Part shown: positions 9,826 to 44,439 of the stretch, in pieces
Position numbering within the stretch: the first letter of the stretch is position 1
Layout of the letters: every line of letters begins with the position of its first letter
Assembly: GCA_963832165.1 (NCBI GenBank)
Contig: CAWHTE010000008.1
Span: forward strand, 70,250-134,249
Direction: 5' to 3'
DNA length: 64,000 nucleotides
DNA from: an uncultured delta proteobacterium
Lineage (GTDB): Bacteria > Myxococcota_A > UBA9160 > SMWR01
The notes under the pieces: model-generated
What the model was told of the DNA's origin: nothing
Database searches by the model: none
The model's input: only the letters and a program-made list of their open reading frames with translations
Translations under genes and position numbers: made by a program

Positions 9826-9862
9826 GAGAATCAGTCTCTCGCCAAGTGGATTCCGGATTCTC
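9826..9862. promoter_or_regulatory. Tandem putative operator sites (GAGAAT-N3-ATTCTC-like), 22-bp spacing
   Basis: GAGAATcagTCTCTC at 9826 and GGATTCcggATTCTC at 9848, upstream of the ALDH operon. Confidence 0.55.
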
Positions 9863-13419: not shown

Positions 13420-15012
13420 CTACGTCCTGCCGCGTCGCGCCGCGCGCGCGCGCAGGATCTCCTTCTCGACCTTGCCCGCCGCATTGACGGGCAGCTCGGC
13501 CACGATCTCCACGGCGCGCGGCACCTTGTAGTTCGCCATCGCGTCGCGCGCCCACGCGATCAGATCCTCGGGCGCGAGCGTCGCGCCCGGAGCCAGCACC
13601 ACGAATGCCATCCCCACCTCGCCGAGCCGCTCGTCGGGCATGCCGACCACCGCGGCGCGGCTCACGGACGGATGGCCGAGCAACAGGCTCTCGATCTCGG
13701 CCGGATAGGCATTGAAGCCGCCGACGATGAACATGTCCTTCTTGCGTCCGACGATGCGCAGGCAGCCCCGCTCGTCGAACACGCCGAGGTCCCCCGTGTG
13801 CAGCCAACCGTCGGCGTCGATCGCGCGGGCGGTCTCGGTCGGATCGTCGAGATAGCCGCGCATCACGCTGTAGCCGCGCACGAGCACCTCGCCGGGCTCG
13901 CCCACGGGCCGCTCCACTCCTGCGTCGTCCGCGATGCGGATCTCGAGGCCGGGCCGGGCGCGACCCACGGTCGTGGCGATCGTCTCGAAATCGTCGTCGG
14001 GCCAGGTGCCCGTGACCGTTCCGGCCTCGGTCAAGCCGTAGCCGGTGTTGATCGATTGAAACCGCAGCTCCTCGCGCATGCGGCGGATCAGGTCGACGGG
14101 AATGTCGGCCGCGCCCGTCACGGCGATGCGCAGCGACGAGAGGTCGAAGCGAGCTCGCGCGGGGTGGTCGAGGACCGACTGGAACAGCGTCGGCGGACCC
14201 GCGAGCACCGTCACCGACTCGGCGCTGATCGTGCGCAGCACGTCTTCGACATCGAACACGGCCTTGGGAAGGATCGCCGCACCGCGCATGAGCGACGTGA
14301 GCCAACCGGCCTTGTAGCCGAACATGTGGAAGAAGGGATTGACGACGATGTAGCGATCGCCGGCCGTGAGCCCGGTCATGTCGCACCAGTCGGAGAACTG
14401 CCGGAGCGTCTGCGCGTGCGTCATCAGCACACCCTTCGGTGCGCCGGTGGTCCCCGACGTGAACAGCACGTCGCAGATATCGTCGGGCCCCACCCCGCCG
14501 ATGCGAGCATCGAGATCTGCGTCACCGATCCGCTCTCCGCGGCGCACGAACGACTCGAGCGAGTGGTCGACGTGCGATGCGCCGTCTAGGCCGATCACGA
14601 GCTCGAGGCTCGGCAGCTGTGGGCGCAGCTCGGAGAGCGTCGCCGCGTAGTTCATGCCCAGGAACTCGCCGACCGTGAACGCCACGCGCGCGCGGCTGCG
14701 CTCGAGGATGTGGCTGACCTCTTTTCCCTTGAATCGCGTGTTCACGGGCACGATCGCCGCGCCGGCGCCCTGCGCTCCGAGCGCCGCGACCACCCACTCG
14801 TATCGGTTGGGGGCCCATACCGCGACGCGCTCGCCGCGCTCGATACCGCACGCGAGCAGCGCCGCCGTCACGCGGCGATAGTCCGCGACGAGCTGGCCGA
14901 AGCTCATGCGCCGGGAACCGTCCACGACGGCTTCTGCCGAGCCGAAGCGTTTCGCGGCATCGGCGGCCAGCGCGGGAATGCTCGCCCACAGTAGGTCGCC
15001 TCTCGTCGTCAT
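13420..15012 (-). CDS. Acyl-CoA ligase (FadD3-like)
   Basis: FTSGTTGAPKG, NPFFHMFGYKAG, GYGLTE, TGDLG, GRKKDMFIVGGFNAYPAEIE. Confidence 0.9.
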   Translation of the reverse strand: MTTRGDLLWASIPALAADAAKRFGSAEAVVDGSRRMSFGQLVADYRRVTAALLACGIERGERVAVWAPNRYEWVVAALGAQGAGAAIVPVNTRFKGKEVSHILERSRARVAFTVGEFLGMNYAATLSELRPQLPSLELVIGLDGASHVDHSLESFVRRGERIGDADLDARIGGVGPDDICDVLFTSGTTGAPKGVLMTHAQTLRQFSDWCDMTGLTAGDRYIVVNPFFHMFGYKAGWLTSLMRGAAILPKAVFDVEDVLRTISAESVTVLAGPPTLFQSVLDHPARARFDLSSLRIAVTGAADIPVDLIRRMREELRFQSINTGYGLTEAGTVTGTWPDDDFETIATTVGRARPGLEIRIADDAGVERPVGEPGEVLVRGYSVMRGYLDDPTETARAIDADGWLHTGDLGVFDERGCLRIVGRKKDMFIVGGFNAYPAEIESLLLGHPSVSRAAVVGMPDERLGEVGMAFVVLAPGATLAPEDLIAWARDAMANYKVPRAVEIVAELPVNAAGKVEKEILRARAARRGRT

Positions 15013-15992
15013 GCGCGCCGTCCGATCACTTCGGCAATCACCTGCTCGGCCACGCGCTGCGGATCGAATACGCCGTGCGCCTGCTCGCGGACGATCGCAT
15101 CGAAGCGCGGGCTGCGACAGCACTCCTCCGCGAGGCGACCGAGCTGCGCCCGGACCCGTTCCCGGATCTCGTTGCGCACGCGCTCGGACCGTCGCCGTTC
15201 GAGGGCGCCCGTCTCGATCCCGTGAGCCCGGTGCGCGCGGATCGCCTCCCAGAGCTGCTCGACCCCCTCGCCTGTCGTGGCCACCGTCTGCACGATCGGC
15301 GGCGTCCAGGGCGCGACCTGCGAGAGCTCGAGCATCGCCTCGAGATCCTTCACCGCGGTGTCCGCGCCCGCGCGATCCGCCTTGTTCACGACGAACACGT
15401 CGGCGACTTCGAGCAGTCCGGCCTTGTTCGCCTGCACGCCGTCGCCCCAGCCCGGGCTCACGACGACGATCGCGGTGTCGGTGGCGCCCGCGATGTCGAT
15501 CTCCACCTGCCCGACGCCGACCGTCTCCACGAGGATCCACGGCGTTCCGCTCGCGCCGAGCACGCGGATCGCCTGCGGTGCGGCCGCGGCAAGACCGCCC
15601 AGCTGTCCGCGCGTCGCCATCGAGCGGATGAACACACCGGGATCGGTGGCGTGTGCGCCCATGCGCACGCGGTCGCCCAGGATCGCACCGCCCGTGCGCG
15701 GGCTCGAAGGGTCGATCGCGAGCACCGCCACGGATTCGCCGCGCGCGCGAACGGCCGCGATCATGCGATCCGTGAGCGTGGACTTGCCGACTCCGGGCGC
15801 GCCCGTGATGCCGATCGCGTAGGCCTGCCCGTCGCCGGCGAGCGACGCGAGTGCCGCGTGGGCCAACTCGTCACCGGCCTCGACGAGCGACAAGAGACGC
15901 GCGACGCAGGCGCGCTCGCCGCGCCGAACGCCCTCGGCAAGCGCCGCAGCATCGAGACCCGCACGCGGCAACCGCTTCTCCTGCCGGGTCAA
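15009..15992 (-). CDS. meaB: B12-mutase-associated GTPase chaperone MeaB
   Basis: GAPGVGKST P-loop, DPSSPRTGGAILGDRVRM, ETVGVGQ, NKAD; start approximate (TTG at 15992). Confidence 0.92.
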   Translation of the reverse strand: MTRQEKRLPRAGLDAAALAEGVRRGERACVARLLSLVEAGDELAHAALASLAGDGQAYAIGITGAPGVGKSTLTDRMIAAVRARGESVAVLAIDPSSPRTGGAILGDRVRMGAHATDPGVFIRSMATRGQLGGLAAAAPQAIRVLGASGTPWILVETVGVGQVEIDIAGATDTAIVVVSPGWGDGVQANKAGLLEVADVFVVNKADRAGADTAVKDLEAMLELSQVAPWTPPIVQTVATTGEGVEQLWEAIRAHRAHGIETGALERRRSERVRNEIRERVRAQLGRLAEECCRSPRFDAIVREQAHGVFDPQRVAEQVIAEVIGRRA

Positions 15993-16052: not shown

Positions 16053-16088
16053 GAAAACGGGCTTACAGTATCTGAGAATGTCATTCTC
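16053..16088. promoter_or_regulatory. Perfect operator-like palindrome GAGAATgtcATTCTC plus a weaker upstream site
   Basis: 16074-16088 is a perfect 6-3-6 inverted repeat; GAAAACgggCTTACA at 16053; lies between divergent meaB and ACAD genes. Confidence 0.65.
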
Positions 16089-18235: not shown

Positions 18236-18258
18236 CCCATGACCAAGGGAGCCATGCT

Positions 18259-19681: not shown

Positions 19682-20453
19682 CTAGCGCTTGAGGAAACGC
19701 TCCACGTTCGCGCGCAGCTCGGGCATGTCGAAGGACTCGGTCTCGGCGGACATCGCGAAGTCGATCGTGGCCAGCACCGAGCGCTCGACGTGCAGGTTCA
19801 GCACGCGCTTGGTGGCCTCCACGGCCTGGCGCGGCAGCGCGGCGATCTTGTGGGCGGCCTTGAGCGCCGCGGGCAGCACCTCGCCATCCGGGCACACGTG
19901 ATTGGCCAGGCCGATCTGCGCCGCTCGCGCCGCAGTGATGCGATCTCCCGTGAACGCGTACTCCTTGGCCAGGAGCAGGCTCGTGTGGAGCGGCCACGTG
20001 AGCGGACCACCGTCAGCCGCCACGAGACCCACCATCACGTGCGGATCCGAGAGGTAGGCCGACTCCGCCATGTAGACGACGTCGGAGAGCGCGATCACGC
20101 TGCAGCCGAGCCCGACGGCCGGTCCGTTGACCGCGGCCACCACGGGGACTCGGCAGCGGATCATGTTGAGCACGATCTCGCGCCCTTCCGCGATCACGCT
20201 TTTCCGCAGCGCGCGATCATCGGACATCCGCTGCAGCAGATCGAAGTCGCCGCCGGCCGAGAACGCGCGCCCTTCGCCCGTGATCACCGCGACGCGCGCA
20301 TCGGAGTCGGCGCTGAGCTGCGGGAAGACCTGGGCCAGTCCGCGATGCAGCTCGTCGTTCACGGCGTTGAGCTGCCTCGGGGCGCGACAGGCGCACGATC
20401 CGTACCGGTCCGTCGGCCTCGACGCGAATCACGTCGGGCAGGGAGTAGTTCAT
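19682..20453 (-). CDS. Enoyl-CoA hydratase/isomerase; frameshift near 20375
   Basis: N-terminus VRIVRLSRP joins LNAVN..., AFSAGGD, AVNGPAVGLG, VGLVAADGG. Confidence 0.87.
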
Positions 20454-20481
20454 CGGAGCTCCTTCCGCGTTCGCGGTTCCG

Positions 20482-21615
20482 TCAGGCCATCGGCAGGCCG
20501 AGGATCCGCGTGGCGATGATGTTCTTCTGGATCTGCGAGGTGCCGCCCATCACGCTCTGCGCGCGACTGTACAGGTAGGTCTTCAGCGCGACATCCTCGC
20601 CGTCGATCGCCGCGCGGGGACCGGACACCGCCAGCGCCGCGGCGCCCACCGTCTGCTCGACCCAGGTCATCAGGAGCTTGTCGATCGACCCGCCCGGCCC
20701 GTGATCGATCCCGTCGTGGCGCTCCGACAGCCGCCGGCACACGTGCAGCCGCAGCATCTCCGCCTGCACGTGCGCCCACGCGACGGATTCGCGCTGGTCG
20801 CTCCGGAACGCGCGCGGGTTCGCGCGCACCGCGCGCTCGAGCTCCTTCACCGTCTTCGCGTAGCGCGCCACGTAGCCGAGCTCACCGGGCTCGCGCTCGT
20901 GGCTCACGATCGTCATCGCGACGCGCCATCCCTCACCCGGCTCGCCGATCATGTAGGCCGCGGACGCGCGCGCGCCATCGAAGATCACCTGCCCGAACTC
21001 GCTCGTGATGCCGTTGATCATGCGCAGCGGGCGCTGCTCGATGCCCGCCTGGCGCATCGGGACCGCAAACGCGGTGATGCCCTTGTGCTTGGGCACACCC
21101 GGATCGGTGCGCGCGAGCAGGAAGCACCACTCGGCGACGTCGGAGTAGCTCGTCCAGATCTTGTGGCCGTTGATCACGTAGTCGTCGCCGTCGCGCGTCG
21201 CCGTGGTGCGCAGCGCCGCGAGGTCGGATCCGGCATCGGGCTCGCTGAAGCCCTGACACCAGCGCTCGCGTCCGCTGATGATCCCCGGCAGGAACCGGTC
21301 CTTGATCGCGTCGCTGCCGTGCACGGCGATGCCCTGCACGAGGTAGCCCAGGCTCGGGCGCGGCGGCGCACCCGCCGCGGCGAGCTCGTCGTCGACGATC
21401 ACGTCGAACACGGAGGGCAGCTCGTGCCCGCCGTACCGCTTCGGAAAGGAGAGCCCGAAGAAGCCGGCGTCGTAGAGCGCGGTGTGCCACTCCGCCTGGC
21501 GAGCCCAGTACTCGTCGTCGGTCGACGAGGTCGGCAGACCCGGATTGTTCGCGGCCACCCATGCGCGCAGGCGCGCTCTGAATTCCGCTTCCGCGGGCGA
21601 ATCACGAAAGTCCAT
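20482..21615 (-). CDS. Acyl-CoA dehydrogenase (heteromeric-pair subunit)
   Basis: WCQGFSEPDAGSDL, GHKIWTS, MGGTSQIQKNIIA. Confidence 0.92.
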   Translation of the reverse strand: MDFRDSPAEAEFRARLRAWVAANNPGLPTSSTDDEYWARQAEWHTALYDAGFFGLSFPKRYGGHELPSVFDVIVDDELAAAGAPPRPSLGYLVQGIAVHGSDAIKDRFLPGIISGRERWCQGFSEPDAGSDLAALRTTATRDGDDYVINGHKIWTSYSDVAEWCFLLARTDPGVPKHKGITAFAVPMRQAGIEQRPLRMINGITSEFGQVIFDGARASAAYMIGEPGEGWRVAMTIVSHEREPGELGYVARYAKTVKELERAVRANPRAFRSDQRESVAWAHVQAEMLRLHVCRRLSERHDGIDHGPGGSIDKLLMTWVEQTVGAAALAVSGPRAAIDGEDVALKTYLYSRAQSVMGGTSQIQKNIIATRILGLPMA

Positions 21616-22642
21616 CGCTCACTCCGAGACGCGTGCGCTGCAATTGCCGCAGCTGCTCGCCGTCGTCGCCGAACCACTGTGACGAGAGCAGCGCGCGGCG
21701 CAGGTATACGTGGACGAGGCAATCCCACGTGTTCCCCATGCCGCCGTGCACCTGTACCGCCGTCTCGCAGACGGTGCGCGCCGCGCGTGCGCAGTAGGCC
21801 TTGGCCACCCGCCCGGCGTCGCGCGCTTCGCCGGGCGCGAGATGGTCGACGGCCCACGACGCGTACAGCGCCGCGCTGAGCGATCCCTCCATGAGACAAC
21901 GCGCCTCGGCCAGCAGATGCTGCACGGCCTGGAACGAGCCGATCGCAACGCCGTACTGCCGGCGTTCGGTCGCGTAGGCCACGGTCGCGTCGATCACGCC
22001 TCTCATGAGACCGACGAGATCGGCGCTCGTGAGCGCGAGGCCCAGGGCGGCCCAGGAATCGAGATCCTCACGGGTGAGGATCCGACGCTGATCGCCGACG
22101 CCGAACACGGGCGTGCCGGACGCGATCGGGCGAATCGCGCGCGTGAGATCGGCGCCGTCGTTGGCCGTATCCACTCGCACCCGCGCGAGGCGATAGCCCC
22201 CGCCGTCGGGGACCAGCACGTAGGCATCGTGGCCGTCCGCGGCCGAGTCCACGGCGTAGATCGGCGTCGCCGTGAGCCCGCCCGGTACGACCGCGCAATC
22301 GATCAGGTCGGACGAGAATGCGACGACCGCACCTTCGGTCACGCTCGAGCCCGCGCGGCGGGCGAGATCGACCGCGAGGACCGGGCCCGCGAACGCGACG
22401 TCGGCCACGGCTCCCGCGAGCGCGTCCGCGATGATCGCCGCCTCCACTCCACCCGCGAGCGGCGCGCCGTCTCCTCCGTCGTCGCGAACTTCGAGCCAAC
22501 CGGCGTCGCGCACGGCCCCCGCGAGCGACTTGATCCGCGTCTCGTCGGTGAGATCGGCGACGGTTCGCGGTCCGAGCTCACCCGCGAGCTGGCGAGCCGT
22601 GCGCCGGAGTTCAGCCTGCTCGGGTGTGTCCCGGACGTCCAC
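21602..22642 (-). CDS. Acyl-CoA dehydrogenase partner subunit
   Basis: RRQYGVAIGSFQAVQH, QVHGGMG; overlaps the partner gene. Confidence 0.88.
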   Translation of the reverse strand: MDVRDTPEQAELRRTARQLAGELGPRTVADLTDETRIKSLAGAVRDAGWLEVRDDGGDGAPLAGGVEAAIIADALAGAVADVAFAGPVLAVDLARRAGSSVTEGAVVAFSSDLIDCAVVPGGLTATPIYAVDSAADGHDAYVLVPDGGGYRLARVRVDTANDGADLTRAIRPIASGTPVFGVGDQRRILTREDLDSWAALGLALTSADLVGLMRGVIDATVAYATERRQYGVAIGSFQAVQHLLAEARCLMEGSLSAALYASWAVDHLAPGEARDAGRVAKAYCARAARTVCETAVQVHGGMGNTWDCLVHVYLRRALLSSQWFGDDGEQLRQLQRTRLGVSDGLS

Positions 22643-22676: not shown

Positions 22677-22713
22677 GAGAATCATATTAGCGTAATTTGA
22701 GAAGACTGTTTGC
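22677..22713. promoter_or_regulatory. Tandem putative operator sites, 22-bp spacing
   Basis: GAGAATcatATTAGC at 22677 and GAGAAGactGTTTGC at 22699, in a divergent promoter. Confidence 0.55.
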
Positions 22714-22765: not shown

Positions 22766-23776
22766 ATGCTGACCGACCACACATACCACGTTCTCTCCGT
22801 GGTCGACGTCGTCGACGAGACGCCCGACACGCGGTCGTTCGTGCTCGAGATCCCCGCCGCGCTCGAGGAGACGTTCCGCTACACCGCGGGCCAGTTCTGC
22901 ACGTTCCGCGCGGCGATCGACGGCGAGGCGATCGCGCGCTGCTACTCGATGTCGAGCTCGCCCGACGTGGGCGATCCGTTCACGACGACCGTGAAGCGCG
23001 TCTCCGACGGGCGGATGTCGAACTGGATGCTCGACGGGCTCGCTCGCGGGGACACGATCGAGGCGATGCGCCCGACCGGCCTGTTCGTGCTGCGCGAGAC
23101 CGATCTCCCGATCGTCGCCTTCGCGGGGGGCAGCGGGATCACGCCCGTAATGTCGATCCTCAAGAGCGCGCTCGCCACCACGACGCGCCGGATCGCGCTC
23201 GTGTATGCCAATCGCGGACCCGATTCGATCATCTTCGAGCGCGAGCTCGAGCGCCTGCGCGCCGCATCCGGTGGCCGGCTCTCGGTCCATCACCATCTCG
23301 ACTCGCAGCGCGGGTTCCTCGATCCCGCGGCCTGCGCGTCCCTGGTGCGCGACCCGAACGCCGACTTCTACATCTGTGGTCCGGGCGCCTACATGGACAC
23401 GGTCGAAGCCGGCCTGTCGACGCTGGGCGTGAGTGCGGACCAGCGCTTCATCGAGCGGTTCGACGTACCCACGAGCGCGCCCGCCGACGAGAAATCGCTC
23501 ACCGAGTCGGTCGTGGTCCGGATCGACCGCCGCAAGCACGTCCTGCGCTACCAGCCCGGAGATACCGTGCTCGAGTCAGCGCGACGCGCGGGCCTCTCCC
23601 CGCCCTACTCGTGCGAGTCGGGCAGCTGCGCCACGTGCATGGCGCGCCTCGACGCGGGTTCGGTGCGGATGCGCGTGAACAACGCGCTGTCGGCCGAGGA
23701 GGTCGATGCGGGATGGGTGCTCACCTGCCAGGCGATCCCCACGAGCCCGGAGGTGGTCGTCAACTACGACCCGTGA
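22766..23776 (+). CDS. FNR-type reductase with C-terminal [2Fe-2S] ferredoxin (KshB/PaaE-like)
   Basis: RCYS FAD motif, AGGSGITP, YICGP, CESGSCATC...LTCQ. Confidence 0.92.
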   Translation: MLTDHTYHVLSVVDVVDETPDTRSFVLEIPAALEETFRYTAGQFCTFRAAIDGEAIARCYSMSSSPDVGDPFTTTVKRVSDGRMSNWMLDGLARGDTIEAMRPTGLFVLRETDLPIVAFAGGSGITPVMSILKSALATTTRRIALVYANRGPDSIIFERELERLRAASGGRLSVHHHLDSQRGFLDPAACASLVRDPNADFYICGPGAYMDTVEAGLSTLGVSADQRFIERFDVPTSAPADEKSLTESVVVRIDRRKHVLRYQPGDTVLESARRAGLSPPYSCESGSCATCMARLDAGSVRMRVNNALSAEEVDAGWVLTCQAIPTSPEVVVNYDP

Positions 23777-24917
23777 TCGCGCTCCGCGCAGATCCGAGGA
23801 TCTCGTCGTCGTGCTCGTGCAGGCGCGGCGGTGCGCAGTAATCGGCGCGTGCGCCATCGAATCGCATCGGGCTGCCCATCACGTGCAGCGGCCCCTCCTC
23901 GGTCTCGATCGACGCGATCATGCCGCGCGAACGAACGAGCTCGCCGTCGAGCGCCTCCCCGAGCTCGCGCACGGCGCCGGCCGGGACGCCGAGCGGACGC
24001 AGGAGCTTCTCCCAATCCGCCGCCGAGGCCTCTTCGAGGCGCGCCGCAAGTGCGTCGAGCAGCTCCGCGCGGTGCTCGAAACGCGCGTGCATCGTGGCGA
24101 AGCGCGGGTCGTCGGCCCACTCGCGCCGATCGATCGCCGCACACAGACGCCGCCAGACTTCGTCGTGCGTGACGAACAGCGCGAGGTATCCCGATGCCGT
24201 CGCGAACAGCTGCGCGGGCACGTAGAAGATGTGCGCGCCGAGCGGCTGGCGCGTCGGCGCACCGCCGCCGTTCAGGTAGGCGGCCGCCTTGTAGTTGAGC
24301 TGCGCGAGCATCGAATCGAAGAGCGACACGTCGACCTGACCCCCCTTGCCCTCGAGCACCTTCGCGACGAGCCCGAGCGCCGCCATGATTCCCGCCGAGT
24401 TGTCGATCGCGGAGTAGCCCGCCAGCGTGGGAGGTCCGTCGGGCTCGCCCGTCAGCGCGGCCACGCCCGTGATCGCCTGGATCACGTAGTCGAACGCGGG
24501 CCACTCCGCGGCCGGGCCATCGAGCCCGTAGCCGGTCAGCGCCACGCATACGATCTTCGGGTTGAAGCGGCGCAGCGACTCGTATTCGAGCCCGAGCTTC
24601 CGGATCGTCGACGGCCGCAGGTTCACGAGCAGCGCATGCGCGGTCTTCGCGAGCGCACCGAGCTCGGCCTGACCCTGCGTCGTTGCGAGATCGATGTGCA
24701 CGCTGCGCTTGTTGCGGTTGATGCTCGCGAAATAGACGTTGTGCCCACCGACGTACTGCGACCCGACCTTGCGTGACAGATCGCCTTCGATCGGCTCGAT
24801 CTTGATCACGTCGGCGCCGAGGTCCGCCAGCAGCATTCCGCCGAACGGGCCCGCGAGGATGTGGCCGACCTCGAGCACGCGGATGCCCGCGAGCGGTCCC
24901 GAGCGAGTCGCGGTCAC
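23760..24917 (-). CDS. Family III CoA transferase
   Basis: GPLAGIRVLE, LADLGADVIKIE, NRNKRS, AFDYVIQA, SAID. Confidence 0.9.
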   Translation of the reverse strand: MTATRSGPLAGIRVLEVGHILAGPFGGMLLADLGADVIKIEPIEGDLSRKVGSQYVGGHNVYFASINRNKRSVHIDLATTQGQAELGALAKTAHALLVNLRPSTIRKLGLEYESLRRFNPKIVCVALTGYGLDGPAAEWPAFDYVIQAITGVAALTGEPDGPPTLAGYSAIDNSAGIMAALGLVAKVLEGKGGQVDVSLFDSMLAQLNYKAAAYLNGGGAPTRQPLGAHIFYVPAQLFATASGYLALFVTHDEVWRRLCAAIDRREWADDPRFATMHARFEHRAELLDALAARLEEASAADWEKLLRPLGVPAGAVRELGEALDGELVRSRGMIASIETEEGPLHVMGSPMRFDGARADYCAPPRLHEHDDEILGSARSAITGRS

Positions 24918-25360
24918 GACGGCGCATCCGTTCGGCGCCCGGCGTCGAGCAGCTCGACGAGCACCCCGTCCGGGTCGCGCACCGTCGCCGCCGCGGTTCC
25001 ATTCGAGAGGGACGTGCGGCGAACGTCGGTGGCGCCCAGCTCGAGCAGAGCCGGCAGCACGACCTCGAGATCCACGGCGAAGGCGAGCAGCACGCTCCCG
25101 GTCGCGGGCGGGCCCGGCGGCGGGCCGTCCGGAACCGGCTCCGCGAACGTGATCAGCTCTAACGCTCCAGCGTGCGGGCGCTTCGGATCGCCGAGGATCA
25201 CGGCTCGCAGCCGCTTGGACGGAGCCGCGACTCCGAGCAGTGTCGGCCAATCCCCGTCGAACTCGCGGTCGACCAGCACCTCGAAGCCCAGACCATCGCG
25301 GTAGAAGCGCGTGCTGCGCTCCGCATCGCGGACGAAAAGCGTGACGTGATGCAGTTGCAC
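24914..25360 (-). CDS. VOC/glyoxalase family protein
   Basis: LHHVTLFVRD..RSTRFYRDGLG, LELI, RDPDGVLVEL. Confidence 0.88.
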   Translation of the reverse strand: MQLHHVTLFVRDAERSTRFYRDGLGFEVLVDREFDGDWPTLLGVAAPSKRLRAVILGDPKRPHAGALELITFAEPVPDGPPPGPPATGSVLLAFAVDLEVVLPALLELGATDVRRTSLSNGTAAATVRDPDGVLVELLDAGRRTDAPS

Positions 25361-26381: not shown

Positions 26382-26418
26382 GGCAATATGATTCTCGTTT
26401 AACGAGAATTGCCTTGAC
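26382..26418. promoter_or_regulatory. Tandem putative operator sites, 22-bp spacing, overlapping a TTGACA -35 element
   Basis: GGCAATatgATTCTC at 26382 and GAGAATtgcCTTGAC at 26404; TTGACA at 26414 with TAGACT 18 bp downstream. Confidence 0.6.
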
Positions 26419-30712: not shown

Positions 30713-31967
30713 ATGACGCGCTGGGCCAGGCCGCCGGAGGGGAGCTGGACGCAGCACTATCCCGAGCTCGGCACGAAGCCGATCTCGTTCGCCGACTCGA
30801 CCTCTCCGGAGTTCTACGCGCTCGAACGCGAGGCGATCTTCAAACGCGCCTGGCTCAACGTGGGTCGCGTCGAGGACCTGCCCCGCAACGGCAGCTACTT
30901 CACCAAGGAGCTCGAGGTCGCGGGTACGTCGATCGTGGTCGTGCGCGGAAGCGACGGCCACGTGCGCGCGTTCCACAACATCTGCCGGCACCGCGGCAAC
31001 AAGCTCGTGTGGCGCGACTATCCGCGTCGCGAGACCAGCGGAACCTGCCGTCAATTCGCGTGCAAGTACCACGGCTGGCGGTACAACCTCGACGGCGCGC
31101 TCGCATTCGTCCAGCAGGAGAGCGAGTTCTTCGACCTCGACAAGCGCGATTATGGACTCGTGCCCGTGCACTGCGACACCTGGTCGGGCTTCATCTTCGT
31201 CAACCTCGACGCGACGCCGCGCCAGATCGCTGCGCGAGTTCCTCGGACCCATGCTCACTGCGCTCGAGGGCTACCCGTTCGACGCGATGACGGAGCGCTA
31301 CGAGTTCCGCGGCGAGAACGACAGCAACTGGAAGATCTTCGCCGATGCCTTCCAGGAGTACTATCACGTGCCCGCGTTGCACCCGCAGCAGGTGCCCCCC
31401 GCGATGCGCAGAGCGGAAACCTCCGTCGAGGCAGCCTACTACCAGCTCGACGGCCCGCACCGGATGACGACCACGGGAGGGTCGCGCCGGTGGACGATGC
31501 CCGAGTACATGTATCCCATCGAGCGCGCGACGAAGAGCGGCCTGCTCGGCCCGTGGACGATGCCGGATCCGGCCGACCTGCCGCCCGGGGTCAACCCGGC
31601 CAAGATCGAGCCGTGGGGGATCGACAACTTCCAGATCTTCCCGAACGTCGAGATCCTGATCTACGGGGACTGGTACCTCTGCTACCGCTACTGGCCCACG
31701 TCGCATAACACCCACCGCTTCGAGGCGTTCCTGTACTTCCGACCGGCCCGCAGCGTGCGCGAGCGCGTCGCGCACGAGGTGGCCGCAGTCGTATTCAAGG
31801 AATTCGCGCTGCAGGACGCTGGAATGCTCACAGGCACGCAGATGGCGCTGGAATCGGGCGTCCTCGACCGGTTCCCGCTCAACGACCAGGAGGTGCTCGT
31901 GCGGCACTTCCACGAAGTCGTCGCGGACTGGGTCGAGAACTACCGGCTCGAACGCGCGGCGGTTTGA
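30713..31967 (+). CDS. Rieske oxygenase alpha subunit (copy 2); frameshift near 31225
   Basis: CRH..CKYH in the 30713 frame; DAFQEYYHVPALH and LQD in the 31152 frame. Confidence 0.9.
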
Positions 31968-35775: not shown

Positions 35776-36453
35776 TCAACCGCGGAGACCATGGAGACAG
35801 TATTCCCACGTCTCGTCGGCCGTAACGCGCATCCGCGGGTTCTGGACCAGGCGGTTCCCGATCCAGCTGAACATCACCGTCTGCTGCATGAGCGCAGCCG
35901 TACGCCGCGTGTCGCTGACCTTGATCGCGCCCGCCTCGACCGACGCGTCGAGGAGCTGGACCAGCATGTGCGTGATCGGCCCCATCGCGGTCCGCAGGCG
36001 CTCGGGATGGTCGACCGCGAGCTGCAGCGAGAACTCGGAGATCGGGCGGCGGTTGTGTCCTCCGCGTTTGCGCGGCGTCCCGGCCGGCTCGCACCACTCG
36101 TGGAGTCGGATCGTGAAGGCGCGCAGACGCCCCATCGGATCGCTTTCGCTCTCGAGCATCTTCGAGATGTCTTCGATGCATTCGCGGGTGGTCTCTTCGA
36201 ACAGCGCGAGCAGCAGCTCGTCCTTGCCGTCGAAATACTGGTAGAACCCGCGCAGCGACTGCTTCGAGCGGTCGACGACCTCCTGGATCGTGAAATCGGT
36301 CGTGCCCTTCTCGTCGATCAGATCGAACGCAGCGTCCATGAACCGCTGGACACGCTGCTCCGCACGCGAACGGGCCGCGCTCAGGCTGCGCGAAACGGCC
36401 CGCTGACGCCAGGCAGGCTGATTTGCGTCACCGGGTGCTTCGACTTCTGCCAT
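35776..36453 (-). CDS. TetR family transcriptional regulator
   Basis: AAFDLIDEKG..FTIQEVVDRSKQSLRGFYQYFDGKDELL helix-turn-helix. Confidence 0.92.
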   Translation of the reverse strand: MAEVEAPGDANQPAWRQRAVSRSLSAARSRAEQRVQRFMDAAFDLIDEKGTTDFTIQEVVDRSKQSLRGFYQYFDGKDELLLALFEETTRECIEDISKMLESESDPMGRLRAFTIRLHEWCEPAGTPRKRGGHNRRPISEFSLQLAVDHPERLRTAMGPITHMLVQLLDASVEAGAIKVSDTRRTAALMQQTVMFSWIGNRLVQNPRMRVTADETWEYCLHGLRG

Positions 36454-36524
36454 TTTAGAACCCGCTTTCATTGGAAGAAGAGTACCAGCATGCTGACGCT
36501 GGAAAAGGCCTTACCAAATCCTCG

Positions 36525-37280
36525 TCAGCTCGTTCTCCGCGACTTCTTGAACGTGTCGACCGCGGCCCAATGCGCCTCGGCGGCCCAGAGCTCGGCAAAC
36601 GCGGCCGTGGCGCCCTCCTCGAGCTCGGGGTGGAAGGAAGGGGCCGCAGCGCTGACCACGGACTTCACGGCCCGGGTGGTCCCGGGCGCCGTGGCCGCCA
36701 TCCGCTGCGCCAGCCTCCGCCACTCCTCGTCGAAAGCCGCGCGCGGCACCACGACGTCGACGAGGCCCAGCCGCTGCGCGGTCGGGGCGTCGTAGAGGTC
36801 GCCAGTCGCGATCGCCAGCAGCGCGCGGCTGCGCCCGATCGCCTGCGCCAGGCGCTCCGCGCCGCCCCATGCGGGCATGATGCCCAGGGTCACCTGGTTG
36901 AAGCCGATCTTGATGTCGTCGGCCGCGATACGGATGTCGGCGGCGATTGCGACCTCGGCTCCGCCCCCGAGCGCGTGTCCGTTCAACGCCGCGAGGACCG
37001 GGACCGGGAAGGCGGCGATGCGGTCGAGGACGTGCCGGACGCGGCTCGCCATGCGGACCGCCTCCTCGTAGGTGCGAACGGCATCGAGCTCCTTGAGGTC
37101 TCCACCCGACACGAACACGCGATCCCCCGCACCCCGCAGCACGAGCACCGCTGCGCCCGAAGCCAGGACGTGGTCGAGCGCCGCGCCGAGCTCGTCGATC
37201 GTCGCGAAGCCGATCGCATTGCGGACCTCGGGCCGGTCGATCGTGACCACGGCGACGCCAGCCTCGATCTCCACGCGCAC
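36525..37280 (-). CDS. Enoyl-CoA hydratase/isomerase
   Basis: DRPEVRNAI, FVSGGDL, NGHALGGGAE, GIMPAWGG; GTG at 37280 preferred because the longer ORF runs through the operator region. Confidence 0.88.
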   Translation of the reverse strand: MRVEIEAGVAVVTIDRPEVRNAIGFATIDELGAALDHVLASGAAVLVLRGAGDRVFVSGGDLKELDAVRTYEEAVRMASRVRHVLDRIAAFPVPVLAALNGHALGGGAEVAIAADIRIAADDIKIGFNQVTLGIMPAWGGAERLAQAIGRSRALLAIATGDLYDAPTAQRLGLVDVVVPRAAFDEEWRRLAQRMAATAPGTTRAVKSVVSAAAPSFHPELEEGATAAFAELWAAEAHWAAVDTFKKSRRTS

Positions 37281-37301
37281 CTCGCCCGCGGCGAAACGGC
37301 T

Positions 37302-37382
37302 GATAATAGTGTTCTCGCTTGATATCAATATGGCACCGTAATTATGTAAAGCATACTAGATGTTTTTGGAAAGATCATTGCC
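37302..37382. promoter_or_regulatory. AT-rich divergent promoter with operator-like sites phased at multiples of 22 bp
   Basis: GATAATagtGTTCTC at 37302, GTAAAGcatACTAGA at 37346, GGAAAGatcATTGCC at 37368. Confidence 0.45.
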
Positions 37383-37415: not shown

Positions 37416-39002
37416 ATGGACCGACGCGTGCACAGCGAGGCCGGCATCCCGCTCGCCGCGAGCTACGGACCAGACGATCTCCCCGGCCCCGAGTCGATCC
37501 CGCCGCCGGGAGAATTCCCGTTCACGCGCGGAAACTTCGCCGAGGGCTACCGCGGCCGGCTCTGGACGATCCGCCAGTACTCGGGCTTCGGCACCGCGGA
37601 AGAATCGAACCAGCGCTACCGCTACCTGCTTGCGCAGGGCGGTACCGGTCTCTCCGTCGCGCTCGACCTCCCCACTCAGTGCGGGTACGACTCCGATCAC
37701 CCGGACGTCGAGGAGGAGGTGGGCCGGGTCGGCGTCGCGCTCGACACGCTCGCCGACGCCGAGATCCTGTTCGATCAGATTCCGCTCGATGCGATCAGCA
37801 CGAGCTTCACGATCAACGGCACGGCCGCGATCCTGCTCGCGTTCTACGTGGCGGTCGCGGAGAAGCGCGGAGTCGATCGCGCGGTGCTGCGCGGCACGAT
37901 CCAGAACGACATCCTCAAGGAGTACGTGAGCCGCGGCACGTGGATCTGGCCACCCCGCCCTTCGCTGCGCCTGATCGCCGACACGATCGAGTTCTGCGCG
38001 GCAGAGGTGCCGCGCTTCAACGCGATCTCCGTCGCGGGAGCGCATTTTCGCGACGCCGGTGCCAACGCCGCGCAGGAGATGGCGTTCACGCTCATGGACG
38101 GCATCACCTACTGCGACGAGGTGATCGCGCGCGGCCGAATGACGATCGACCAGTTCGCGCCGCAGGTGTCGTTCTTCTTCTACACCCACGGCGACTTCTT
38201 CGAGGAGGTCGCCAAGTACCGGGCCGGACGGCGGCGATGGGCCCGCATCGTGCGAGAGCGCTACGGCGCGAAGGACGACCGCTCGTGCATGTTCCGCGTC
38301 GGCTGCGTCGCGGGCGGGGCGTCGCTGTACGCGCCGCAGGCCCGCAACAACGCCGTGCGCATCGCCTACGAGGCGCTCGCCTCGGTACTCGGCGGAGTGC
38401 AGTCGATGTTCACTGCAGCGTGGGACGAGCCGTTCGCACTGCCCAGCGAAGAATCGGCCACGCTCGCGCTGCGCACGCAGCAGATTCTCGCCCACGAGAC
38501 CGGCGTCGCGCGCGTCGCCGACCCGCTCGGCGGTTCGTACTACGTCGAGGCGCTGACCGACCAGGTCGAGGCGCGCGTCATCGAGATCATGGACGACCTC
38601 GAGCGCCGCGGCGGCATGGTGCACTCGATCGAGGACGGCTATCTGCAGCGCCTGATCTCGGACGAGTCGTTCCGCGCCCAGAAGGCGCTCTCGTCGGGCG
38701 AGCGGACGGTCGTCGGTGTGAACCGGTTCCAGACCGAAGAAGAGCCGCCCGAGGTCGCCGGCTACGAGCTGGACGAGAAGGGCCGAGCTGTTCAGCTCGA
38801 GCGACTCGCCGGAGTAAAGCGGGCGCGCTCGGCCGGCGATGTGCGTGCCGCGCTGGGCGCGCTGGGCCGGGCGGCGGCGCAAGCGGACGCCAACCTGATG
38901 CCGCACCTGATCGACTGCGCGAAGGCCTACTGCACGGTCGGCGAGATGGTGGACGTGCTGAAGGACCAGTGGGGCGAGTTCCAGCAGCCGGCGGTCTTCT
39001 GA
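37416..39002 (+). CDS. AdoCbl-dependent acyl-CoA mutase, large (substrate-binding) subunit; MCM family with atypical pocket
   Basis: PGEFPFTRG, WTIRQYSGF, GLSVALDLPTQ.GYDSD, GTIQNDILKEY..RG, ALRTQQILAHE, DPLGGSY. Confidence 0.95.
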   Translation: MDRRVHSEAGIPLAASYGPDDLPGPESIPPPGEFPFTRGNFAEGYRGRLWTIRQYSGFGTAEESNQRYRYLLAQGGTGLSVALDLPTQCGYDSDHPDVEEEVGRVGVALDTLADAEILFDQIPLDAISTSFTINGTAAILLAFYVAVAEKRGVDRAVLRGTIQNDILKEYVSRGTWIWPPRPSLRLIADTIEFCAAEVPRFNAISVAGAHFRDAGANAAQEMAFTLMDGITYCDEVIARGRMTIDQFAPQVSFFFYTHGDFFEEVAKYRAGRRRWARIVRERYGAKDDRSCMFRVGCVAGGASLYAPQARNNAVRIAYEALASVLGGVQSMFTAAWDEPFALPSEESATLALRTQQILAHETGVARVADPLGGSYYVEALTDQVEARVIEIMDDLERRGGMVHSIEDGYLQRLISDESFRAQKALSSGERTVVGVNRFQTEEEPPEVAGYELDEKGRAVQLERLAGVKRARSAGDVRAALGALGRAAAQADANLMPHLIDCAKAYCTVGEMVDVLKDQWGEFQQPAVF

Positions 39003-39392
39003 ATGCCGGTGCGCGTACTCGTCGCCAAGCCCGGACTCGACGGTCACGACCGCGGCGCAAAGCTCGTCGCGCGCGCGCTGCGAGATGCCGGGTTCGAGGT
39101 CATCTACCTCGGGATCCGTCAACGGCCCGAGGCGATCGCGGCCGTCGCAGTGCAAGAGGACGTGCAGATCGTGGGGCTCAGCATCCTCTCGGGATCCCAC
39201 GTCGCGCTCACGCGCAAGACCGCGGATGCGTTGCGCGCCGCGGGCGCCAAGGACGTCGTGCTCGTGGTGGGAGGCACGATCCCCCAGCGCGACGTCGCGC
39301 TGCTCGAGTCGGCCGGTGCCACCGCCGTGTATCCAACGGGCACTCCGCTCGAGGTGCTCGTCGAGAGCCTGCGCGAACTCGCGCCCGCCTAA
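39003..39392 (+). CDS. Cobalamin-binding small subunit of the acyl-CoA mutase
   Basis: AKPGLDGHDRG (DxHxxG), GLSILSGSH, VGGTIP. Confidence 0.95.
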   Translation: MPVRVLVAKPGLDGHDRGAKLVARALRDAGFEVIYLGIRQRPEAIAAVAVQEDVQIVGLSILSGSHVALTRKTADALRAAGAKDVVLVVGGTIPQRDVALLESAGATAVYPTGTPLEVLVESLRELAPA

Positions 39393-42808: not shown

Positions 42809-42816
<8 letters not shown>

Positions 42817-43685
42817 GGCGTGCCTCCGCGATCGCCGTGGTCCACGCGCGCGCCACCATCGCGGCTCCGACGCGCTTGCGGTACTCCGCCGATCCGTGCA
42901 GATCGCTCGGCACCGAGTCGAGCCCGGAGATCGCGAGTCGCCCCACCTCTTCCGCCTCGACTTCCTTCACCACGCGGCCGGCGATCTCGGCCTCCGCCGC
43001 GCTCGCGCGTTCGGGCGTCGACCCGAGTCCGAACAGGCTCAGAGCGCAGCGGCGGATCCGATCACCGCCGTCGAGCTCGACGCCGATCGCGGCGCCCGCG
43101 ATCGCGAAGTCGCCGTGACGGCGCGCGAACTCCTCGACCGCGAAGCCGCTGCGCGTGCCCCAGATCGGGAACGACACGCCCGCGAGGATCTCGTCGGGCG
43201 CCACCTTCGTGCTCCAGAGACCCTCGAAGAAGTCGCGCGCCTCGATCGCGCGCCTCGCCCTACGCCCCGACGACCTCCATGCGCGCGTCGAGCGCGAGGG
43301 CGACCGCCGGGTATTCGGCGGCCGGGTCGGCGTGTGCGATCGATCCGCCGAGCGTGCCGCGGCTGCGGATCTGGAAGTGCCCGATCAGCGGTGTGGCCTT
43401 CGCGAGCAGCGGAACACTCGACGCCACGTCGGCGCTGGCCTCGACGGCGGCTTGCGTGGTGCCTGCACCGATCCACAGTGCGCCATCGCGGCGCGCGATG
43501 CCCGAGAGCTCTGCGATGCGCCCGATGTCGACGAGGTGCTCGAAGACCGTGAGCCTAAGCGCCAAGAGCGGGATGAGGCTCTGGCCACCCGCCAGCACCT
43601 TCGCCCCCTCGCCGAGCTCGGCGAGCAGCTTCGCCGCATCGGCGACCGTGCTAGGCGAGTGATATTCGAACGGGGCGGGCTTCAA
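42809..43685 (-). CDS. FAD-binding medium subunit (CoxM-like); frameshift near 43262
   Basis: KPAPFEY, LAGGQSL, RSRGTLGGSIAHADPAAE, then ARRHGDFA and DLHGSAEYR in the next frame. Confidence 0.88.
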
Positions 43686-43695
43686 CGGGTAAAGC

Positions 43696-44439
43696 TCACG
43701 CGAGCTTCGCGGCCCATCCGCCATCGACCGGAATGATCGCGCCGCTCACGTAGGAGGCGCGGTCCGACACGAGGAACGCCGCGACCTCCGCGACTTCTTC
43801 CGGCTGCGCGCCGCGACCCAGCGGCGCCTTCGCGCCCATGAAGGCGGCCAGCTTCTCGCCGCCGGGCGCGCTCATCTCCGTGTGGATGAAGCCGGGGCAC
43901 AGGCAGTTGGCGCGGATCCCATTAGCACCGTATTCGACGGCGGCCGACTTCGTGAAGGAGATGACTCCGGCCTTGGCCGCCGAGTACACGCTCGTACCGG
44001 CAGTTGCGTTCAGACCCGCGAGCGACGACCAGTTGACGATCGAGCCGCCGTGGCCGCCCGCGAGCATGGCGCGGATCCCGTGCTTCGTTCCCAGGAACAC
44101 GCCGCGCAGATCGACCTCCATGAAGCGGTCGTAGTGCTCCGCGGTCACGTCGGCGATGCTCGCCGCACCGGCGATCCCGGCCACGTTGAGCACGGCGTCG
44201 ACGCGGCCGAAGTTCTCGACCGCCGCGCGCATCAGCGCCTCCACGTCTGCCTCCTGCGTGACGTCGCAGTGCACCGGAAGAACGTTCGCGCCGAGCGCCT
44301 TCGCGGTGTCCTTCTCGCCGCCGCTGATGTCGGCCGCCACGACCTTCGCGCCCTCGCGAACGAAGATCTTGCACGACGCTCTGCCCATGCCGGAGCCGGC
44401 GCCTGTGATCACCGCGACCTTGCCGTCCAACGATCCCAT
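43696..44439 (-). CDS. SDR oxidoreductase
   Basis: TGAGSGMG, NVAG, YSAAK. Confidence 0.92.
   Translation of the reverse strand: MGSLDGKVAVITGAGSGMGRASCKIFVREGAKVVAADISGGEKDTAKALGANVLPVHCDVTQEADVEALMRAAVENFGRVDAVLNVAGIAGAASIADVTAEHYDRFMEVDLRGVFLGTKHGIRAMLAGGHGGSIVNWSSLAGLNATAGTSVYSAAKAGVISFTKSAAVEYGANGIRANCLCPGFIHTEMSAPGGEKLAAFMGAKAPLGRGAQPEEVAEVAAFLVSDRASYVSGAIIPVDGGWAAKLA

Follow-up and report, generated by a model that had tools for sequence, protein, structure and literature searches.

Few acyl-CoA mutase specificities are known so far. The Sbm operon of Escherichia coli (scpA-argK-scpB-scpC) brings together a B12 mutase, a MeaB-type GTPase, a crotonase-fold protein and a CoA transferase, and E. 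coli employs these four functions to convert succinate to propionate, according to excerpts of PMC5391575. The mycobacterial McmA2 (MMAR_4797/4798; MSMEG_4881) is, like the mutase described here, split into two subunits; it lies among many P450 and MCE genes and appears in the excerpted text of PMC4428469 as an annotation, with no assay and no mention of pocket changes. The closest solved structure is that of 2-hydroxyisobutyryl-CoA mutase (HCM; 4R3U; HcmA of M. petroleiphilum PM1; E 3e-152), which also has separate large and small subunits.

The mutase gene pair

In the window, the whole stretch of 64,000 nucleotides that was analysed, the mutase is encoded by two genes:

37416..39002, + strand, acyl-CoA mutase large (substrate-binding) subunit, 528 aa, TIGR00641
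39003..39392, + strand, B12-binding small subunit, 129 aa, TIGR00640, DxHxxG motif at His15

The large subunit scored 652.6 bits against TIGR00641 (cut-off 303.8) and the small subunit 151.1 bits against TIGR00640. Both open reading frames of 37416-39392 lie in a single frame, with the start codon of the small subunit immediately after the stop codon of the large one. The split is real. The small subunit was found in 79 of 80 related loci, and the large frame ended ahead of it in all 78 loci that have a downstream small subunit, in 62 of which the two were in different frames; a split caused by sequencing error or by read-through of the in-frame TGA was ruled out by these counts.

The AlphaFold model of the large subunit had a pLDDT of 94.2, and the best fold match of the mutase model was 4R3U (TM 0.97, rmsd 1.1 Å), while the overlay on the closest methylmalonyl-CoA mutase (MCM) structures was 1.3-1.5 Å. 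The barrel, the B12 domain and the equivalents of Glu370 and His244 place the pair in the AdoCbl-dependent acyl-CoA mutase superfamily. Judging from sequence, the pair is probably active as an adenosylcobalamin-dependent acyl-CoA mutase from an uncharacterised clade.

Residues of the substrate pocket

Residues were numbered after P. shermanii MCM (1REQ), aligned to the large subunit, and the roles assigned to MCM residues are those of the literature. The five motifs named in the initial annotation were all present in the + strand translation, and comparison with 1REQ confirmed that Tyr89 and Arg207 are kept and that Y243, Q330 and N366 are swapped; the pocket changes it listed were right, but H328G, E247D and H364F had been overlooked. 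The large subunit retains Y89 (Y55), Q197 (Q163), R207 (R173), H244 (H210), F287, R326, Q361, D369 and E370 (E338), and differs from 1REQ by Y243A, Q330V, N366A, S241A, Q246R, E247D, R283Q, H328G, S332G, W334A, H364F and L368W. H364F and L368W add bulk.

Of 196 homologues that are at least 68% identical, 193 have Ala and three have Ser at position 243, and D247, G328, V330, F364 and A366 are each present in all 196. The Tyr89/Arg207 clamp (Y55, R173) was likewise kept throughout, in 195 of 195 aligned and 196 of 196. In a sister clade of 120 proteobacterial proteins, 54-60% identical to the query, A243, D247, G328, V330 and F364 are each found in 120/120, with position 366 being Cys in 117 and Ala in three. 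A pocket signature so nearly invariant in both groups indicates that the changes did not arise by chance or decay, and a pseudogene was ruled out by its invariance in both branches.

When 109 representatives of the mutase family were compared, E370 was kept in 106, Y243 in 73, H328 in 54, Q330 in 49 and N366 in 35, and the changed sites are thus the variable sites of the family. By a crude estimate from residue volumes, the side-chain volume lost at positions 243, 328, 330 and 366 is about 208-227 Å3 in the clade versus about 94 Å3 in Ecm. Y243, E247, Q330 and N366 are presumably close to the adenosyl group, so that the changes need not all make space for substrate. Non-MCM pockets were seen in 36 of the 59 representatives that retain Y89 and R207, which implies much unexplored chemistry in the family.

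These pockets, the alteration of all four presumably adenosyl-proximal residues and the inclusion of E247D and Q246R, near the cofactor, in the remodelled site would also suit some other radical rearrangement, on a non-succinate skeleton (a hydroxy-, cyclic or longer dicarboxylyl-CoA), in which the partner crotonase ECH1 would be a ring hydrolase, isomerase or retro-aldolase; one-glutamate crotonases such as ECH1 span many reactions. We consider this unlikely, as E370, H244, Q197, Y89 and R207 are intact, the fold can be overlaid on HCM and on the closest MCM structures (see above), and ECH1 groups with an ECHDC1-like protein (see below).

Phylogenetic placement

The 196 close homologues and the 120 sister proteins formed one clade (support 100/100), apart in the tree from the tested methylmalonyl-, ethylmalonyl-, hydroxyisobutyryl- and isobutyryl-CoA mutases. 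ScpA and the genome's own MCM grouped together elsewhere in the tree, also with 100/100. Clustering with characterised MCMs had been named in the initial annotation as the outcome that would speak against it, and the query was not among them. Its view that the enzyme is not a canonical MCM was likewise borne out by the separate clade, by a score of 573.7 against the MCM equivalog model, below the cut-off of 876 (this model also covers the B12 domain, which scored 115.4 by itself, too little to close the gap to the cut-off), and by the presence in the same genome of a canonical fused MCM, besides Ecm-type and IcmF-type mutases.

It is accordingly very improbable that the pair is an ordinary MCM isozyme (McmA2) in a succinate-to-propionate cycle of the Sbm type, although it is named methylmalonyl-CoA mutase in databases and in the excerpts of PMC4428469, keeps the Tyr/Arg clamp and has a gene set that parallels the Sbm operon. 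Y243, H328, Q330 and N366 are kept by every MCM reference examined, whereas the query has A/G/V/A, and all five checked actinobacteria have a second mutase of MCM length (748-789 aa frame) at 44-47%. Moreover, an engineered Y243A exchange reportedly cripples MCM.

The order large-small-TIGR03564 in the window parallels the numbering MSMEG_4881 ... MSMEG_4879, and the mycobacterial clade member is probably McmA2/MSMEG_4881. A genome scan gave at least 574 confirmed relatives, and the mutase was carried by 10 of 301 sampled Actinomycetota genomes. The clade is widespread, unstudied and mis-annotated as methylmalonyl-CoA mutase, mycobacteria included; a search of the searchable literature found no assay of any clade enzyme, no matching characterised pathway and no account of the pocket residues.

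Conserved gene partners

The following neighbours were found in the window:

36525..37328 (start codon uncertain), - strand, divergent crotonase-fold protein ECH1, candidate (alkyl)malonyl-CoA decarboxylase
23760..24900 (5' end approximate), - strand, family-III CoA transferase, orthologue of that in the proteobacterial operon, 68/80 loci
15009..15950 (5' end approximate), - strand, MeaB GTPase chaperone, PF03308, 284.8 bits
25381..26331, - strand, TIGR03564 (MSMEG_4879 family) F420-type LLM oxidoreductase, 341.9 versus a cut-off of 234.25
19682..22642, - strand, pair of acyl-CoA dehydrogenases with a second crotonase, accessory genes for beta-oxidation
35776..36471, - strand, TetR-family regulator, downstream of ECH1, weak TetR-family matches, 7/80 loci
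37302..37316, no strand, palindrome of the GAGAAT-N3-ATTCTC type that resembles an operator, in the divergent gap between ECH1 and the mutase
16074..16088, no strand, the palindrome again, in perfect form, upstream of MeaB/ligase/SDR genes

Both branches have a core in common that comprises the mutase, MeaB, an unusual crotonase and a family-III CoA transferase, the last being orthologous between the branches. In Paraburkholderia, Sulfitobacter and Marinobacter these form an operon (ECH-large-small-CoA transferase-MeaB-like), immediately followed in Paraburkholderia and Sulfitobacter by a TRAP/TAXI transporter. Among sister-branch loci with enough flank, 42 of 55 had the ECH gene immediately upstream, and 52 of 59 carried the CoA transferase on the downstream side. 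The sister-branch CoA transferases matched that of the window at 52-53% (other paralogues at 34% or less), and the best match of the sister-branch ECH in this genome was ECH1. MeaB was located within 10 kb of the mutase in 14/80 loci. The carboxylate clamp kept in all aligned homologues and the family-III CoA transferase together point to a dicarboxylic acyl-CoA as the likely substrate, in agreement with the initial annotation.

Other genes varied between loci. The TIGR03564 oxidoreductase, found in 66 of 80 actinobacterial-branch loci and in none of 83 sister-branch loci, is accessory and restricted to the actinobacterial branch. ACAD-b was present in 37/80 loci and the second crotonase in 35/80. 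The oxygenases are accessory as well, with a Rieske protein in 9/80 and the two P450s of the window in 15/80 and 8/80 loci of the actinobacterial branch; the oxygenase-rich pathway proposed initially holds for part of this branch, but not for the proteobacterial branch, which has a compact five-gene operon. The TetR-family regulator is a candidate reader of the palindrome. A search for repeats in the promoter gap gave nothing useful, and the main text of PMC4482099 (Balhana 2015) has no mention of the palindrome, of MSMEG_48 or of the mutase.

The ECH1 crotonase

ECH1 keeps the first catalytic Glu, has Gln in place of the second, and carries an AWGG motif and a C-terminal W and H; it thus lacks the second of the two glutamates of canonical enoyl-CoA hydratases, which are E/E in the hydratases of the PDB. 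Glu/Gln was found at these positions in 33/33 actinobacterial-branch and 48/49 sister loci, and the full signature in one of the 53 crotonases of this genome. The crotonase match of G071 was ruled out as an ECH1, being a canonical E/E enzyme on another branch, and two apparent fusions of ECH and B12 domain (P0425, P0452) were read as frameshift artefacts with arginine-rich out-of-frame linkers.

ECH1 lay within 10 kb of the mutase in just 33 of 80 actinobacterial-branch loci, and five checked genomes without a nearby copy each had one distant copy, 79-129 kb off or on another contig. In the 301 sampled actinobacterial genomes, ECH1 was present in 10/10 with the mutase and in 0/291 others, 12 candidates having been scored per genome and the 10 positive genomes probably being kin rather than independent.

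A eukaryotic protein (P0437), with about 29% identity, has the E/Q/W/W/H signature in common with ECH1 and adjoins the Atlas cluster named 'Ethylmalonyl-CoA decarboxylase' (0.96). It was placed as sister to the ECH1 family (FastTree 0.957; IQ-TREE 96.6/96), this link to ECHDC1 being made through a single unnamed sequence that was obtained with the ECH1 profile and whose pairwise margin was small (phmmer, 84.2 versus 82.5 bits; second by blastp). None of the 120 proteins listed was named ethylmalonyl-CoA decarboxylase. When ECH1 itself was the query, ordinary hydratases led in the PDB and no decarboxylase was among the 60 matches listed each time, and the Atlas returned only unnamed actinobacterial crotonase clusters. 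ECH1 would probably take off the carboxyl group. The initial annotation had passed over this probable carboxyl-removing partner, as well as H328G, which the mutase has in common with Ecm.

Proposed pathway

Fold, residues, clade, gene partners and co-occurrence were observed; all the catalytic steps, their direction and the class of substrate are predictions made from them. We favour a route in which a substituted succinate is converted to its CoA ester, rearranged by a B12-dependent shift to a substituted malonyl-CoA, and decarboxylated. The succinate would be activated by the family-III CoA transferase. In the mutase, serviced by MeaB, Tyr89 and Arg207 would grip the free carboxylate and the thioester group would be moved by a radical 1,2-shift, with the substituent-bearing carbon facing the cavity opened by Y243A, H328G, Q330V and N366A. 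The ECHDC1-like crotonase would then decarboxylate the product and pull the equilibrium, and the released acyl-CoA would enter beta-oxidation or branched-chain catabolism. Such a shunt would be needed where the succinate cannot undergo dehydrogenation and hydration.

Candidate substrates, to which we give about equal weight, are 2,2-dialkyl (quaternary) succinates (for example 2,2-dimethylsuccinyl-CoA, to isopropylmalonyl-CoA and isovaleryl-CoA) and aryl-, cycloalkyl- or sec-alkyl-succinates. Only tentatively might the module be a route by which bacteria in general dispose of quaternary carbons, from 2,2-dialkylsuccinyl-CoA to a branched malonyl-CoA that is decarboxylated by a bacterial counterpart of ECHDC1; the gem-dimethyl remnant of terpenoids is an example of such a carbon. 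If so, the mutase reaction would be new, as would the pathway, which would span at least three phyla, and the ECHDC1 lineage would have a role in a native pathway.

The same chemistry on a bulky malonyl/succinyl-CoA could also proceed with an ECH1 that is no decarboxylase, or with flux from malonyl to succinyl and possibly in biosynthesis, which we regard as rather unlikely. The malonyl-to-succinyl direction is that of Ecm and of the matlystatin/actinonin MatB/ActD route. Split mutases forming 2-pentylsuccinyl-CoA were proposed in the excerpts of PMC5719088, a biosynthetic role of McmA2 was guessed by Young et al. in those of PMC4428469, H328G and the 'AW' motif are in common with Ecm, and ECH1 is often distant from the mutase in mycobacteria. 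On the other hand, the neighbours annotated in a subset of clusters included no recognisable carboxylase/reductase, epimerase, PKS or NRPS, and the partnership with a CoA transferase, transporters and acyl-CoA dehydrogenases is a catabolic pattern.

For the favoured succinyl-to-malonyl route, the enlarged pocket and constant partners suggest that a bulky branched dicarboxylic acid, refractory to the ordinary burning of fats, is reshuffled and then shortened. The constant partner set narrows the question to three enzymes and a short list of substituted succinates. If true, the route would provide a new carbon-skeleton rearrangement useful in biocatalysis, would account for the removal by aerobes of branch points that cannot be oxidised, and would give a function to the bacterial ECHDC1-like family.

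Comparison with known systems

The pair resembles MCM (1REQ, 2XIJ, 6OXC) in fold (TM 0.90-0.96) and in Y89, Q197, R207, H244, E370 and DxHxxG, but differs by Y243A, E247D, H328G, Q330V, H364F and N366A, by its split and by its clade. HCM has Ile89/Gln207 with Y243, H328, Q330 and N366 retained, IcmF has Phe89/Gln207, and Tyr89 and Arg207, both kept by the query, are reportedly lost in pivalyl-CoA mutase. Ecm/MeaA shares Y89/R207, H328G, a small residue at 366, Trp368 and the KEY.SRG and 'AW' motifs, whereas it retains Y243, E247 and Q330, is fused, has N369 and N366P, and forms a separate branch (100/100). The annotated MeaA/Ecm, with H328G and N366P, accommodates one extra methyl.

By description, in excerpts of the sources, the phenylsuccinyl-/benzylmalonyl-CoA mutase IaaGH and the hexylmalonyl-CoA mutase MatBQ/ActD are proposed to carry out B12-dependent shifts on bulky succinyl/malonyl-CoA. 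In the iaa route a CoA transferase acts before IaaGH, and the decarboxylation after it is oxidative, by the dehydrogenase IaaF; MatB is biosynthetic. No mutase was found on the Azoarcus KH32C plasmid. An ECHDC1-like eukaryotic protein carries the ECH1 signature as sister to its family, but the mammalian ECHDC1 serves in metabolite repair, whereas the gene for ECH1 belongs to a mutase operon.

The module differs from the Sbm operon in the split and the remodelled pocket of its mutase, in its ECH1, which is no orthologue of ScpB (25% identity, separate branch), and in its transferase, which is of family III whereas ScpC is a family I CoA transferase. By analogy, the Sbm operon is nevertheless probably the best model of how the module works, the module of the window acting on a bulkier, possibly quaternary, substrate.

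Mutase gene pair and its substrate pocket

The following genes encode the mutase in the window.

37416-39392, plus strand: mutase large subunit (528 aa) and B12-binding subunit (129 aa, with DxHxxG), in two abutting ORFs

Every motif quoted in the initial annotation was found in the encoded protein, and its claim that Tyr89 and Arg207 are retained while Tyr243, Gln330 and Asn366 are swapped was borne out by comparison with P. shermanii methylmalonyl-CoA mutase (MCM; 1REQ), as Y89, R207, Y243A, Q330V and N366A. Q197, H244, F287, R326, Q361, D369 and E370 were also retained, and S241A, Q246R, E247D, R283Q, H328G, S332G, W334A, H364F and L368W were further substitutions. The AlphaFold model of the mutase (pLDDT 94.2) superposed on 2-hydroxyisobutyryl-CoA mutase 4R3U (TM 0.97) and on human MCM 2XIQ (TM 0.95). 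The division into two subunits is conserved, with the large ORF ending ahead of the small subunit in 78 of 78 loci, and in a different frame in 62 of these.

Positions 89/207 are I/Q in 2-hydroxyisobutyryl-CoA mutase (HcmA) and F/Q in isobutyryl-CoA mutase (IcmF), the substrates of which are monocarboxylic esters, in agreement with the residue roles that we assume for MCM (carboxylate clamp and pocket positions, 1REQ numbering). The ethylmalonyl-CoA mutase MeaA/Ecm has H328G and N366P. Across 109 near-full-length family representatives, E370 (106) and D369 (105) were conserved, while Y243 (retained in 73), H328 (54), Q330 (49) and N366 (35) were variable. By a crude estimate, in which H364F and L368W restore some volume, the side-chain volume lost at 243/328/330/366 relative to MCM is ~208-227 A3 in the clade and ~94 A3 in Ecm. 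Our reading of these residues is that the mutase may have a dicarboxylyl-CoA site with space beyond Ecm's single methyl at the thioester-donating carbon. However, the changed residues presumably also lie near the adenosyl group, which counts against a reading purely in terms of substrate space.

Non-MCM pockets, almost all distinct, were seen in 36 of 59 mutase representatives with Tyr89/Arg207 (among proteins P0123-P0271), which implies many further unstudied mutase specificities. Other split mutases, with unusual residues at 89/207, were also encountered on a Shinella plasmid (L183:5086-11967; Val/Gln at 89/207, beside an aminotransferase and a ligase) and on a Sphingobium plasmid (L184:9471-12576; Leu/Asn at 89/207 and Gln243, beside a thiolase and a ligase).

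A mutase clade of two branches

The top 120 database matches of the large subunit were 84-91% identical to it, and a genome scan gave at least 574 confirmed relatives, from which 80 loci were retained, labelled chiefly Acidimicrobiia, Mycobacterium, Nocardia, Rhodococcus, Gordonia and Streptomyces. The 120 database sequences and 78 from the loci (198) were analyzed with family representatives, and an identity threshold of ≥68% across >400 residues left 196. The pocket signature was near-invariant in these 196, with D247, G328, V330, F364 and A366 in all, A243 in 193 and S243 in 3. A second branch, at 56-58% identity, was found on Paraburkholderia, Sulfitobacter and Marinobacter plasmids; its best 120 homologues shared this signature, position 366 being either Cys or Ala, and 119 of them retained Arg283 (R283Q in the query).

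The two branches were sisters (FastTree 0.999, 141 sequences; IQ-TREE 100/100, 25 sequences). The clustering with MCMs that would have refuted the initial annotation was not seen: the mutase did not group with the MCM references, E. coli ScpA and the genome's own MCM. The two-branch clade was also separate from annotated MeaA and the genome's own Ecm, HcmA and IcmF, with deeper nodes poorly resolved.

Within a known enzyme class, the clade forms a genuine and widespread subfamily that is uncharacterised; a literature search over main texts, with few subscription journals, gave annotation-level mentions only. In PMC4428469, MMAR_4797/4798 is described as a split second mutase (McmA2) in a P450- and MCE-rich region, and in PMC10066036, MSMEG_4881 is termed a methylmalonyl-CoA mutase gene. 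The usual gene order in query-branch loci was large-small-TIGR03564, a family named for MSMEG_4879. From locus description and gene order, the mycobacterial clade member is probably McmA2.

The genome that holds the window also carries MCM, Ecm-type and IcmF-type mutases and an adenosyltransferase. Its Ecm-type and IcmF-type genes (contig C11:270001-271922 and C5:60996-64465) look split across frames; the canonical MCM gene, also on C5, shows no such break. The RecA of this genome clusters at 90% with a protein that is labelled Myxococcota. None of 40 relatives searched at E≤1e-150 had the clade mutase gene, which is therefore patchy within this lineage and was probably acquired by lateral transfer. 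The genome has 66 LLM-family matches (3 past the TIGR03564 cut-off) and 53 crotonases, an actinobacterium-like catabolic repertoire in a probable Myxococcota.

Partner genes

Neighbourhoods of 80 query-branch loci were compared over up to 10 kb, many contigs being shorter. Partners were the small subunit (79), a CoA transferase (68), a TIGR03564 LLM protein (66), the acyl-CoA dehydrogenase ACAD-b (37), a second crotonase (35) and, in 33, the divergent crotonase ECH1; a ligase (17) and MeaB (14) were rarer. The 83 sister-branch loci had the order ECH-large-small-CoA transferase-MeaB-like, frequently following IclR; where flanks sufficed, ECH was directly upstream in 42 of 55 and the transferase was present in 52 of 59. 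No TIGR03564 LLM gene was found in these 83 loci, and ACAD-b had a single match, at 31%. Within this genome, the best matches of sister-branch transferases and crotonases were the window's own genes.

From the partners common to both branches, the shared core is therefore the mutase, MeaB, the family-III transferase and ECH1, with oxygenases and dehydrogenases accessory. The oxygenase-rich pathway proposed in the initial annotation holds in part: Rieske (9) and two P450 genes (15 and 8) lie near some of the 80 loci, but oxygenases are outside the core.

A glyoxalase/VOC-fold gene (24914-25360, minus strand), of a fold that includes acyl-CoA epimerases, lies between the LLM and CoA transferase genes and recurs in 1 of 80 loci. 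Assembly indels or decay may explain a second Rieske oxygenase spread over two frames (30713-31967), a molybdoenzyme FAD subunit in two ORFs (42809-43724) and an acyl-CoA dehydrogenase and P450 joined in one ORF (16568-19524).

A palindrome shared by scattered genes

A conserved GAGAAT-N3-ATTCTC-like site was present in 14 aligned ECH1/mutase gaps, from which a search pattern was derived.

37302-37316: palindrome upstream of mutase/ECH1
16074-16088: palindrome upstream of MeaB
9826-9840: palindrome upstream of ALDH
22677-22691: weak palindrome, two mismatches, upstream of ACAD
26382-26396: weak palindrome, two mismatches, upstream of the LLM-transferase genes

Within the window, three sites accounted for 4 matches to the pattern versus 0.06 expected, and there was 1 match in the 5.5 Mb beyond it. 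Query-branch loci held 178 matches versus 0 in three shuffles, and metagenome sister loci held 3. In 14 of 79 loci, the pattern preceded the mutase gene by ≤250 bp. The sites at 22677 and 26382 are weak because two-mismatch sites number 70 on other contigs. The distribution suggests that the scattered genes of the island are co-regulated; the palindrome is a candidate TetR operator.

Co-occurrence and identity of ECH1

The clade mutase was found at 76-78% identity in 10 of 301 Actinomycetota genomes, a count that omits 32 further matches at 51-54% and in which G046 and G093 enter the denominator only. ECH1 was found in exactly these 10 genomes, which are not independent; an eleventh crotonase match was a canonical enzyme and was excluded. 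In each of five genomes that lack ECH1 beside the mutase, a single copy lay elsewhere, in four cases on the same contig at a distance of 79-129 kb.

ECH1 retains the first hydratase Glu, and the second is Gln in 33 of 33 query-branch and 48 of 49 sister-branch proteins (His in the remaining one). It also has an AWGG-type motif and, at the C-terminus, an invariant W..H; 1 of the 53 crotonases of this genome carries the whole set. Comparison ruled out ECH1 as a ScpB orthologue. Among the best 120 of 255 matches in a search for longer ECH1 relatives, none was named ethylmalonyl-CoA decarboxylase (ECHDC1). One of these 120, P0437, is a eukaryotic-looking protein, and the three Atlas clusters closest to it are of eukaryotes, with Ethylmalonyl-CoA decarboxylase as the name of one (0.96). 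P0437 carries the ECH1 signature and was sister to the ECH1 family (0.957; 96.6/96 on 33 of 77 sequences; 0.959). Because P0437 scores just slightly better against ECH1 than against other crotonases in pairwise comparison and was retrieved via an ECH1 profile, a relationship between ECH1 and ECHDC1 is a lead. ECH1-type crotonases fused to a thymidylate-kinase domain were seen in metagenomic proteins P0419-P0421, P0426, P0430 and P0431, P0419 with the full signature.

Proposed pathway and comparison with known systems

The transferase, mutase and malonyl-decarboxylase-like crotonase would form a coherent shunt, all catalytic steps of which we infer: the family-III transferase would convert a substituted succinate to its CoA ester, the mutase would rearrange this ester to a substituted malonyl-CoA, and ECH1 would release acyl-CoA and CO2. 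B12 is not needed to oxidise simple mono-alkyl or benzyl succinates. The likely substrates are therefore succinates with 2,2-dialkyl, aryl, cycloalkyl or sec-alkyl substitution, and the substrate of the clade is probably new.

The E. coli Sbm operon follows equivalent logic (PMC5391575), but works on succinate, whereas the module here is proposed for substituted succinates; the iaa route is an equivalent shunt on phenylsuccinate with an oxidative decarboxylase (PMC8360864); and the reverse direction is proposed for MatBQ/ActD (PMC5719088).
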